Part shown: positions 8,449 through 10,451 of the stretch, piece by piece
Layout: the number at the start of each line of letters is the position of its first letter
Position numbering within the stretch: position 1 is the stretch's first letter
Assembly (NCBI RefSeq): GCF_054482595.1
Contig: NZ_CM137008.1
DNA length: 64,000 nucleotides
Reading direction: 5' to 3' (one strand)
The notes under the pieces: generated by a model
What the model saw: the letters and a program-made list of their open reading frames with translations, nothing else
Databases searched by the model: none
What the model was told of the DNA's origin: nothing
Position numbers and translations under genes: made by a program

Positions 8449-8617
8449 TATCGCGCCCTCAACAATGAGTTTTGTGATGCGGTGCCTGGTGCCTCCAGGT
8501 GACGTTAACCAGTTAACAATTAACGCCGGATACAGAGAATCCACCCATAACACTGTTTTTGGTTTTAACTGTTCCGCGTGCGCTTAGCCGCATTCACCGC
8601 ATCACAAAATTCACTTT

Positions 8618-8675
8618 AAAAAGGGCGGCAGAGCAGTCACGGAGTAAAACTGATACCGCCAAACGTCACCAGAAA
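8618..8675 (-). ncRNA. dicF: DicF small RNA (ftsZ-targeting sRNA of the dicB operon)
   Basis: Minus strand reads TTTCTGGTGACGTTTGGCGGTATCAGTTTTACTCCGTGACTGCTCTGCCGCCCTTTTT, matching remembered DicF with terminal hairpin and U-run. Confidence 0.7.
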
Positions 8676-9015: not shown

Positions 9016-9234
9016 TTAACGCGGGTATGTAATCATTCTGGCAATGCTTAATGCCGCTGCTTTTTCCAGATTGGTGATATCCTGCTCCAGAGCGGACAGA
9101 TTTTCAGCCTGCTTAGCCCTGGCTTCATTAGCCCATTTCAGATCCTGCGCTGCATTAATTTTCTGGCGCATCCACTCATAAAGTTCATCATCGGTATAGT
9201 CTGGCGCGATTATGACGGGTTCTCGTTTCTGCAT
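9016..9234 (-). CDS. ydfC: Small early-operon protein, YdfC-like
   Basis: 72 aa from MQKREPVIIAPDYTDDELYEWMRQ...; position upstream of dicF as in Qin. Confidence 0.5.
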   Translation of the reverse strand: MQKREPVIIAPDYTDDELYEWMRQKINAAQDLKWANEARAKQAENLSALEQDITNLEKAAALSIARMITYPR

Positions 9235-9326
9235 GTCAGCTCCTTGTGGTTCGCATTGCCTGCTTTTAACCACGTCAGGCGAGGTGGTATCCTCTGAGGG
9301 GTCTGTTACTCGAGAGGAAATTGGTT

Positions 9327-9527
9327 ATGAATACAATCAAGTTTTCTTGCCCAGAATGTGGTGGCGAAGTCTTTGACACATCCTTTAAGCCGCAGGGCTC
9401 TGACAGTTTCGCGGGAGCCATCTGCAAAAATTGTGGTCACCTTGTAACTGAAGATGAGTCCTCGCAGTTCGATGACGAAATCGTTGACAATATCTTCGGT
9501 GCACTCACCAGAGACTTTCTGAAATAA
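9327..9527 (+). CDS. Small zinc-ribbon protein (CxxC...CxxC)
   Basis: MNTIKFSCPECGGEVFDTSFKPQGSDSFAGAICKNCGHLV...; SD-like gagaggaaa ~7 nt upstream; antisense to leftward early operon and overlaps minus-strand ORF 9306..9662, so only one is likely real. Confidence 0.4.
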   Translation: MNTIKFSCPECGGEVFDTSFKPQGSDSFAGAICKNCGHLVTEDESSQFDDEIVDNIFGALTRDFLK

Positions 9528-9851
9528 AGACGCATACCGCTTAGTTACCGCTCTGATAACTCTTACCTGTCCGGCAATGGCGCTGATGTCAATATAAAGC
9601 GCCATTGCTGCTTCTTTGCCGATCCCGTGATGCCTTCCATTCTGATGTTTGACTTCGCCCACTGAGAAATCCTCTGTTTCCCCTTAACGCCGGGGTAGCG
9701 GAACAAAAACCTGCTGCATAGTTATTAAAGTTGGACCCTGCCGTCATGTTCTTACGCCTCGGGCTGGCTACTTAACCCCTGACCACTGCCTGGTAACTCG
9801 AAGTATTGCCCTGCATTCTGTGGGGCGGGGTGGGTTGGTATGAAAAGAAGG

Positions 9852-9889
9852 ATACCCATAGGTATTTAAAAAGTAAATACCCATGGGTA
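9852..9889. promoter_or_regulatory. Candidate OL operator pair (palindromic TACCCAyrGGTA sites) and leftward early promoter region
   Basis: atacccataggtat (9852-9865) and tacccatgggta (9878-9889); related to acctgtgggtat sites between repressor and cro. Confidence 0.45.
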
Positions 9890-9931: not shown

Positions 9932-10351
9932 CTATGATGCGTTTTGTGCTTTCTTTTTACGGATTTCTTCGTAGATCATATTGTAATACTGTTTTTTCTC
10001 TTCAAGAGTTTTTAATAAGTTATCCGCTTCACTTTCTGGCAGTTCGTCTAAGAGATCTAAAAAAATACGTTGTCGTGGCGTTAGAACCCTTGTTTCATAA
10101 CTGGAGGCTGTGTTCGTTGATGATGAAACGATACCATCCATCCATCCCCGGGGTAACCCAAAGGACTCTTCGATAATCTCCACCATATCATCAGCGATCC
10201 GTTTTTTTCCCTTTTTCCCCTCTGGGTACAACATTCTTGATACATAAGAAGGCTCGCGCCCGATCTTTCTGGCCACGTTAACCGCTTTACCATCGCATTT
10301 CTCATCACGAATTTTGATGAGTTGCTGTCGTCTAAATTCATATTTGTCCAT
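9932..10351 (-). CDS. Prophage repressor (CI-like, HTH)
   Basis: 139 aa with HTH-like GKAVNVARKIGREPSYVSRM; divergent from cro-like gene; flanked by operator-like repeats. Confidence 0.65.
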   Translation of the reverse strand: MDKYEFRRQQLIKIRDEKCDGKAVNVARKIGREPSYVSRMLYPEGKKGKKRIADDMVEIIEESFGLPRGWMDGIVSSSTNTASSYETRVLTPRQRIFLDLLDELPESEADNLLKTLEEKKQYYNMIYEEIRKKKAQNAS

Positions 10352-10387: not shown

Positions 10388-10423
10388 ACCTGTGGGTATT
10401 GACTTTTGTTTACCTGTGGGTAT
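10388..10423. promoter_or_regulatory. Candidate OR operators: two direct copies of ACCTGTGGGTAT in the repressor/cro divergent region
   Basis: Copies at 10388-10399 and 10412-10423. Confidence 0.5.
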
Positions 10424-10451
10424 TCTTTACTGTGTTTACTAAGGAGTAGCT

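Follow-up and report, generated by a model that had tools for sequence, protein, structure and literature searches.

Where two open reading frames (ORFs) occupy the same DNA on opposite strands, it has to be asked which of them encodes a protein, or whether both do. The question is raised by an Escherichia coli lambdoid prophage of the Qin/dicB type that lies in a window of 64,000 nucleotides (nt), the whole stretch of DNA analyzed here (contig NZ_CM137008.1, NCBI RefSeq assembly GCF_054482595.1). At the head of its leftward operon, a plus-strand ORF for a zinc-ribbon-like protein (positions 9327-9527) lies wholly inside a minus-strand ORF (9662-9306), so that about 200 bases are read on both strands. 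The first-pass annotation had pointed out these overlapping ORFs, and both are present at the coordinates that it gave, although the plus-strand product has 66 amino acids (aa; 66 codons plus stop) rather than 67. As argued below, we regard it as fairly probable that the locus is a nested antisense pair of protein-coding genes, in which the minus gene replaces ydfA/ydfB as the first cistron of a ydfC-dicF-dicB operon. In our best explanation, the pair forms a single mobile cassette, located in the immunity-proximal part of the early region of lambdoid prophages.

Shared codon register and chance expectation

The 2 frames share a codon register, with plus positions 1/2/3 corresponding to minus positions 3/2/1, and therefore only TTA, CTA and TCA codons of the plus strand can give a stop codon on the antisense strand. 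The chance base rate was taken from the 35 long ORFs of the window, in which these 3 codons amount to 2.8% of the total: the codon-aligned antisense frame is open in 31% of the 66-codon stretches of these ORFs, and for genes of such size the expected frequency of an open antisense frame is about 15-31%. Because of this base rate, the overlap in the single sequence is unremarkable and is not beyond chance. What exceeds chance is that both ORFs have been kept across diverged relatives.

Conservation of both frames in diverged relatives

The comparative sample consisted of 94 related loci from IMG/VR and genome assemblies, corresponding to 63 unique sequences and about 10 deep lineages, including Escherichia, Klebsiella, Citrobacter, Enterobacter and Serratia, with protein identities down to approximately 45% (plus) and 36% (minus). 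Both ORFs are present in every lineage (about 10 lineages, 5 genera), and the number of frame-breaking indels is 0. The plus ORF has 66 codons everywhere but in Serratia, in which it is shortened by an in-frame deletion of 12 nt that interrupts neither frame. The plus stop, TAA or TAG, falls at the same codon in every lineage of equal length. The minus frame is open in 63/63 unique variants, including those with a nonsense codon in the plus frame, and none of the 34 unique E. coli-type sequences interrupts the minus ORF.

The 2 frames were also assessed reciprocally (L-numbers denote individual loci). The minus ORF is open in lineages found through the plus protein (L086-L092, L103, L104), and the plus ORF is intact in L099 and L100, lineages found through the minus protein and for that reason excluded from the test of minus openness. 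With freely chosen synonymous codons, the other frame would stay open with a probability of 0.07-0.32 in each lineage. When only lineages found through the opposite protein are counted and lineages are taken as independent, an assumption backed only approximately by near-saturated neutral sites, the joint chance of openness is about 1e-4 for the minus ORF, or about 3e-3 with the empirical base rate of 0.31, and about 5e-4 for the plus ORF. Tree simulations with uniform codon frequencies gave very small P values for openness but overstate the rate at which stops arise; with the codon usage of the window, P was 0.003-0.06 for the minus frame, a modest value, and 0.3-0.56 for the plus frame, which is uninformative. 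Retention of the plus stop under minus-only coding had a P of 0.33-0.57 on the 38-sequence tree and is suggestive only with lineages treated as independent. Because the openness simulations are modest or uninformative, we relied on the rates of site classes and on the more distant lineages.

Natural nonsense alleles of the plus ORF occur in 2 E. coli lineages, with codon 14 changed from GAA to TAA in about 15 of the 94 loci and codon 44 affected in one (IMG/VR loci L057, L059, L064, L065, L069, L070, L072 and copies, and L074). Each of them is missense or silent in the minus ORF, which stays open, and the alleles amount to natural single-frame knockouts. The change at codon 14 (E14) reads as F to L in the minus protein.

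Substitution patterns inside and outside the overlap

The 26 codons of the minus ORF at 9528-9605, on the minus strand and free of the plus ORF (region B), provide a clean test of minus-strand coding. Substitutions were counted in 38 sequences unique over a 279-nt core, and omega was estimated on a 42-sequence tree. Parsimony changes in region B number 33/26/60 at minus positions 1/2/3, transversion rates per opportunity are 0.124 (nonsynonymous) versus 0.79 (synonymous), and omega(minus) is 0.54 (bootstrap interval 0.41-0.73). This pattern is a minus-strand coding signature beyond any explanation by the plus ORF.

The phase is opposite inside the overlap, where changes at plus positions 1/2/3 number 63/28/106. 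Omega(plus) there is 0.37 (0.25-0.55) from NN versus SN sites (N, nonsynonymous; S, synonymous) and 0.44 when the neutral reference is used; the E. coli clade alone gives 0.29, which is also significant. The reversed phase together with omega(plus) rules out minus-only coding in the overlap. At 4-fold sites of the minus frame in region B, the reference for the overlap, 4.25 changes per site were counted, compared with 2.33 at plus-frame 4-fold sites (p = 0.012) and 1.26 at minus-frame 4-fold sites (p = 0.0007) inside the overlap. The synonymous sites of both frames are slowed in the overlap, which suggests mutual constraint of the frames. On deep branches, omega(minus) is 0.53 in region B and 0.75 in the overlap (p = 0.027), with a value of 0.58 for NN versus NS sites (p = 0.005).

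Protein families and conflicting annotations

The plus ORF (ATG 9327, TAA 9525-9527) is assigned to the ECs_2282 family by its match to the NCBIfam model NF047912 (ECs_2282 family putative zinc-binding protein; 57.3 bits versus a cutoff of 37, E 1e-15, profile positions 1-56 of 60), and the Prokaryotic Genome Annotation Pipeline (PGAP) gives the same name to the identical protein WP_001092153.1. The protein has a zinc-ribbon-like head with 2 CxxC pairs (CPEC...CKNC) followed by an acidic tail. The cysteines C8, C11, C33 and C36, putative zinc ligands, do not vary among 9 aligned homologues, the most distant at 45% identity, and the AlphaFold2 (AF2) model is zinc-ribbon-like (mean pLDDT 63.8). 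Pfam matches were all below cutoff and were to generic zinc ribbons. A Lar-like restriction alleviation protein was considered and rejected (TIGR03655, 15.7 bits versus a cutoff of 39.6, E 0.014; PHROG Lar-like, E 0.0098), and the best match in PADLOC, a search for anti-phage defence, was to the candidate model PDC-M14A and not significant (E 0.0019). A search of one-genome-per-species contigs with the plus-protein profile retrieved only 3 unrelated CxxC proteins, the collection evidently being devoid of these prophages.

The minus ORF (9306-9662, minus strand), assigned from the ORF call, a PHROG match and the comparative data, encodes 118 aa from GTG 9662 or 99 aa from the internal ATG 9605, with residues 46-112 encoded antisense to the plus ORF. 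Its residues 20-118 match the entire profile of phrog_21318 (positions 1-99 of 99, E 1.4e-65). The AF2 model, built from only 9 sequences, has a helix-helix-helix-strand-strand-helix arrangement (mean pLDDT 73.5, pTM 0.53). Foldseek comparison of this model with PDB and BFVD gave no match with E < 0.08 and weak winged-helix-like matches at TM 0.2-0.3, and PADLOC gave no matches for minus proteins. A sequence-profile search of PDB yielded no match for either protein. The minus protein has no match in Pfam or NCBIfam, including the N family, and its N-terminus (MGEVKHQNGRHHGIGKEAA) is not arginine-rich, so an N-like first gene was rejected. The first-pass annotation had offered an alternative between an antisense-encoded gene inside the early operon and an unusual N-like first gene; its former limb is borne out by the family match, the selection and the own signals of the plus ORF, whereas its latter limb is not.

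Two side observations concern the borders of the minus gene. In Citrobacter freundii (L088/L089, 2995-3519, minus strand), an in-frame fusion joins it to the upstream gene phrog_23433 in a 174-aa ORF, and in Enterobacter (L077, 2259-2654) it has an N-terminal extension containing CKSCG and is devoid of the usual SD (Shine-Dalgarno sequence) and ATG. In addition, a 52-aa leader ORF lies in another frame at 9589-9747 on the minus strand (protein P0018), and some assemblies fuse it with the minus ORF into a 146-aa product, which is probably a frameshift or gene-calling artefact.

Homologues of both translations exist, and the homology check proposed by the first-pass annotation fails to discriminate the strands because the strand chosen depends on the gene caller. 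The plus ORF is the one that PGAP annotates in most assemblies, but in the RefSeq strain STE15 the minus ORF is annotated as a 99-aa hypothetical protein while the plus ORF is intact, and the strand chosen in RefSeq differs even at near-identical loci (the 99-aa minus versus the 66-aa plus product; NZ_CP095823.1, L105, versus NZ_CP019029.1, L001, and NZ_CP138412.1, L106). Phage GenBank records annotate only the minus ORF, in its 118-aa form. None of the records examined annotates both ORFs together. The locus exposes a concrete annotation problem, one strand or the other being named and never both in those records. The minus ORF is nevertheless not dismissible, given its phrog_21318 match, its periodicity outside the overlap, its conserved SD and ATG, and its open frame in every relative examined.

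Putative expression signals of the two ORFs

A promoter-like element of the plus ORF (9266-9293, plus strand) was predicted just beyond the minus stop codon, with a -35 of TTAACC at 9266-9271 and an extended -10 of TGgTATCCT at 9285-9293, within a block conserved in the alignment. The sequence TGnTATCYT is found upstream of the plus ORF in 9/10 lineages, and only one lineage is without an AAGGA or GAGGA SD; these upstream signals lie outside the minus ORF in most lineages. In the window the SD is GAGAGGAA (9312-9319), 7 nt before the ATG. A promoter-scan match on the plus strand at 9310-9337 spans the plus SD and start codon and was therefore discarded, the conserved extended -10 further upstream being preferred. 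The block 9263-9298 (GCCTGYCTTTTMACCACRTCAGGC..GGTGGTAT) is conserved well past the promoter hexamers and permits 2 alternative short hairpins; it may serve a further function, for instance in the part of the leftward transcript that separates the minus stop from ydfC.

Downstream of the plus ORF, 47 nt past its stop, a hairpin with a T-rich tail (9574-9617, plus strand; stem-loop 9574-9608) has the arms GCAATGGCGCT and AGCGCCATTGC and a 13-nt loop. An 8-bp stem forms the consensus over 10 lineages, 3 pairs are kept through double changes, and 8 T follow the stem in one relative. Judged by its sequence features, the hairpin is probably the terminator of the plus transcript.

In the minus mRNA, ATG 9605 lies within the hairpin just described; in the window, the SD of this ATG is weak (AAGAAG). 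GTG 9662 is preceded at 7 nt by the SD AGAGGA (9675-9670) and occupies the same position as the ydfA start in K-12. Across the sample, a good SD followed by an ATG is present at the homologous N-terminus of the minus gene in 8/10 lineages. A literature search for the locus tag, the protein accessions and the family identifiers returned no match, with no expression data for either strand.

Operon and prophage context

On the minus strand, the leftward order is repressor, operator-flanked promoter, a leader of about 180 nt, minus ORF, ydfC, DicF, dicB, a DUF1482 gene and a gene for an 813-aa exonuclease. The repressor gene (9932-10351, minus strand) was identified as an ORF for 139 aa with a DicA-like C-terminal part, the match to NCBIfam PRK09706 (DicA) being weak and confined to residues 86-136; it is annotated as a hypothetical protein and stands beside a divergent YdaS/YdaT-type pair. 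The leftward early promoter (PL/dicBp-like; 9849-9889 with its 2 operators, minus strand) was predicted in a 37-bp palindrome, with -35 TTTACT (9877-9872), a spacer of 17 and -10 TATCCT (9854-9849), matching 8/12 consensus positions. Two 12-bp palindromic operators, TACCCATAGGTA (9853-9864) and TACCCATGGGTA (9878-9889), bracket this promoter-like site. The OL-like sites named in the first-pass annotation are real, because the operator motif ACCYRTGGGTA occurs twice more around the divergent rightward promoter (TTGACT-16-TATTCT, 10389-10426).

Just 5' of the first cistron lies a 28-nt leader block, GTTCCGCTACCCCGGCGTTAAGGGGAAA (9680-9707, minus strand), which contains a 4-bp GC hairpin, CCCCGGCGTTAAGGGG (9680-9695, minus strand), and, by alignment with NC_000913.3, is common with K-12 Qin save for 1 mismatch. 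In both prophages the block is directly 5' of the SD of the first cistron (ydfA in K-12), while the first cistrons are unrelated. The block may act in processing, stability or translation in the leaders of dicBF-type operons. Identity with K-12 Qin starts exactly at the start codon of ydfC (9016-9234, minus strand; from annotation and the K-12 Qin alignment). Upstream of this codon there is no K-12 similarity except the short leader block, and the leading cistrons ydfA and ydfB were not found; the minus ORF sits where they sit in the K-12 Qin dicBF operon. The DicF small RNA gene (8623-8674, minus strand) was recognized by Rfam RF00039 (76.7 bits, E 1.5e-16), and dicB lies 3' of it, annotated at the matching place in the 100% identical strain Ecol_881. 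The locus has the make-up of a dicBF-type operon, with ydfC, DicF and dicB downstream of an operator-flanked promoter-like site. Between DicF and dicB there is also a sub-threshold Rfam STnc100 match (8471-8611, minus strand; 38.8 bits versus a gathering score of 47, E 2.8e-6).

The 1.1 kb surrounding the ORF pair is 100% identical to several complete E. coli chromosomes, including that of strain Ecol_881. It is matched in part or whole by 4,369/5,426 complete E. coli genomes, 816 of which match most of it, and the cassette is also present in 14 deposited phage records. The minus ORF is always co-directional with the surrounding early operon, in 3 different contexts, and the cassette follows the repressor in most contexts and cro in 2. 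In several loci (L095-L098, L091, L104, L100, L102), the slot between repressor and cassette holds a PaaA2-ParE toxin-antitoxin pair, an HSDR_N-domain gene or a YedD-like gene, and this variable accessory content suggests a hot spot at which accessory or defence-type genes insert.

A probable nested antisense pair and its alternatives

If both genes are functional, the minus gene (about 93-118 aa) would be the first cistron of a repressor-controlled leftward operon composed of minus ORF, ydfC, dicF, dicB and exonuclease, and the plus gene would be a self-contained unit inside it, with its own extended -10, SD and ATG and with its terminator within the first minus codons. By homology to K-12 dicBF, the leftward transcript must cross the ORF pair to reach ydfC, dicF and dicB. 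The corresponding operon transcript of K-12 is processed by RNase III. In a lysogen, the early promoter would be repressed and the plus gene alone expressed, as a moron-like gene; upon loss of the repressor, leftward transcription would make the minus protein and could suppress the plus gene through polymerase collision and a sense/antisense RNA duplex of >200 bp. The 2 proteins would then be made in alternative prophage states. It appears unlikely to us that the proteins further represent an old, co-evolving functional pair and that the cassette is a built-in toggle, set to plus when repressed and to minus once the early promoter fires, with collision and duplex formation enforcing exclusion.

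Several observations weigh against functional genes on both strands. The expression of either strand is inferred from sequence alone. The confidence of the AF2 model of the plus protein is low (63.8), and the nonsense alleles imply that the plus ORF is dispensable at least in some prophages. The minus ORF occupies the classic "shadow" frame, which is open by chance in 31% of comparable stretches. The signal of minus-frame selection comes from deep branches; inside the E. coli clade such selection is undetectable (0.73 in region B, 0.90 in the overlap and 1.27 for NN/NS, all intervals spanning 1), and the 19 codons from GTG 9662 to ATG 9605 (9606-9662) show no periodicity (12/10/12). Minus constraint in the overlap is modest (0.76, 0.56-1.05, for SN sites versus neutral), SN versus SS sites are uninformative for the minus frame with too few SS sites, and the contrast of NN with NS sites also reflects the usual rate difference between codon positions 2 and 1, which confounds it. 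In a tree simulation with selection on the plus frame only, run on the first 38 sequences, the P of minus openness was about 0.02-0.06.

Some of these points would fit a locus in which the plus gene alone is real and the minus ORF is its shadow, crossed by the leftward transcript as an untranslated or incidentally translated leader. The chance openness of the shadow frame, the undetectable minus-frame selection inside the E. coli clade, the aperiodic 9606-9662 segment and the borderline minus-frame constraint in the overlap all agree with it, as do the preference of PGAP for the plus ORF in most genomes and the lack of a known domain or fold match for the minus protein. A shadow, however, would leave unexplained the minus periodicity and omega of 0.54 (0.41-0.73) in region B, where there is no plus ORF, as well as the N-terminal SD and ATG kept in 8/10 lineages and the open minus frame both in all lineages found through the plus protein (about 1e-4 to 3e-3) and in the plus-broken alleles. 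It is also at odds with plus-frame 4-fold sites that are slower than neutral sites, with the constant co-direction of the minus ORF with the operon and with the pLDDT of 73.5 of its AF2 model, and we hold this explanation to be improbable, though still deserving some weight. A variant, to which we give rather less credence, accepts both genes as ancestral and still functional in phages of Klebsiella, Citrobacter, Enterobacter and Serratia but sees the minus gene decaying to a relic leader ORF in E. coli dicB-type prophages, including that of the window. Minus selection concentrated on deep branches (omega 0.53 in region B) with nonsignificant E. coli-internal values (0.73-1.27) would be expected of a relic, and the weak SD of ATG 9605 and the aperiodic 19-codon extension from GTG 9662, which is specific to this lineage, point the same way. 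Yet substitutions are few in the E. coli partition, the intervals of which also cover the deep-branch values, 34/34 unique E. coli-type sequences have an intact minus ORF, and a good SD stands 7 nt before GTG 9662 in a leader common to the ydfA start region of K-12.

The converse case, a real minus gene with the zinc-ribbon ORF as its shadow, could appeal to the phage GenBank records and RefSeq STE15, in which only the minus ORF is annotated, to the plus nonsense alleles and to the weak result for plus openness under minus-only simulation (P about 0.3-0.56). We nonetheless consider it very improbable: the fastest position of the overlap is plus 3, equal to minus 1 (63/28/106), which is impossible under minus-only coding, both estimates of omega(plus), 0.37 and 0.29, are significant, and the 4 cysteines are invariant in a protein that matches NF047912 above cutoff. 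Moreover, the extended -10, SD, ATG and stop of the plus ORF are conserved and lie outside the minus ORF in most lineages, and the plus ORF is intact in the 2 lineages retrieved with the minus protein (L099, L100). A nested pair of coding genes thus remains our preferred reading of the locus.

Comparison with known systems

Well-supported antisense coding overlaps in bacteria and phages are few and disputed, being mostly recent ORFs with evidence from expression rather than conservation. The ORF pair supplies complementary evidence, namely co-occurrence in at least 5 enterobacterial genera, conserved initiation signals for each ORF and, within the overlap, slowed synonymous sites in each frame. 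Antisense overlap is a known but sparsely populated kind of arrangement, and the value of the present case lies in its depth of co-conservation, its experimental accessibility and its annotation conflict; the pair is common and tractable and stands at the head of the well-studied dicF/dicB operon. Shadow ORFs lie in the same codon-aligned antisense frame as the minus ORF, but a shadow should not have a conserved SD and ATG, periodicity past the real gene, or a frame that stays open through saturating synonymous divergence.

The closest relative in operon structure, dicBp-ydfA-ydfB-ydfC-dicF-dicB of K-12 Qin, has a repressor, an operator-flanked promoter, the same 28-nt leader block, a small first cistron and near-identical ydfC, DicF and dicB. 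It differs in carrying ydfA/ydfB in place of the unrelated cassette found here, with no antisense gene. The K-12 dicBF transcript starts at dicBp upstream of ydfA, and an internal promoter was not found (PMC10448788).

Antisense overlapping genes (OLGs) described in E. coli O157:H7 and Pseudomonas aeruginosa, namely ano (PMC5960689), 3 OLGs in EDL933 (PMC9927249) and 2 long OLGs in P. aeruginosa (PMC8850804), likewise consist of a coding ORF antisense within a coding ORF, of a kind usually discarded by annotation pipelines. They are described as ORFs that are evolutionarily novel or newly discovered and lie within an established gene, with support mainly from RNA-seq and ribosome profiling. 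The pair described here contains no partner of established function; its two ORFs are conserved together in at least 5 genera, down to about 40-50% identity, and the support is comparative.

The nearest precedent for strand-alternating expression at a phage immunity region, by analogy, would be the Pseudomonas phage Fc02, in which olg1 on the lysogenic strand and gene 10 on the early lytic strand overlap in antisense beside the repressor and both confer exclusion (PMC9936078). The arrangement of olg1/olg2 versus gene 10 (Ramirez-Sanchez et al. 2023, PMC9936078) resembles the present one in that protein genes occupy both strands of a single stretch of DNA adjacent to a repressor. Fc02, however, is a Mu-like transposable phage, and its proteins are unrelated to those here. 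Its lysogenic-strand genes are co-transcribed with the repressor, whereas the plus gene here appears to have its own nested promoter and terminator. Expression and exclusion activity were demonstrated experimentally in Fc02, while the pair described here offers cross-genus conservation, known from sequence comparison. Should the toggle exist, the roles of the 2 proteins could be related or opposed, as has been proposed for olg1 and gene 10 of Fc02, and might concern, for instance, exclusion, defence or regulation of the toxic genes dicF/dicB downstream.

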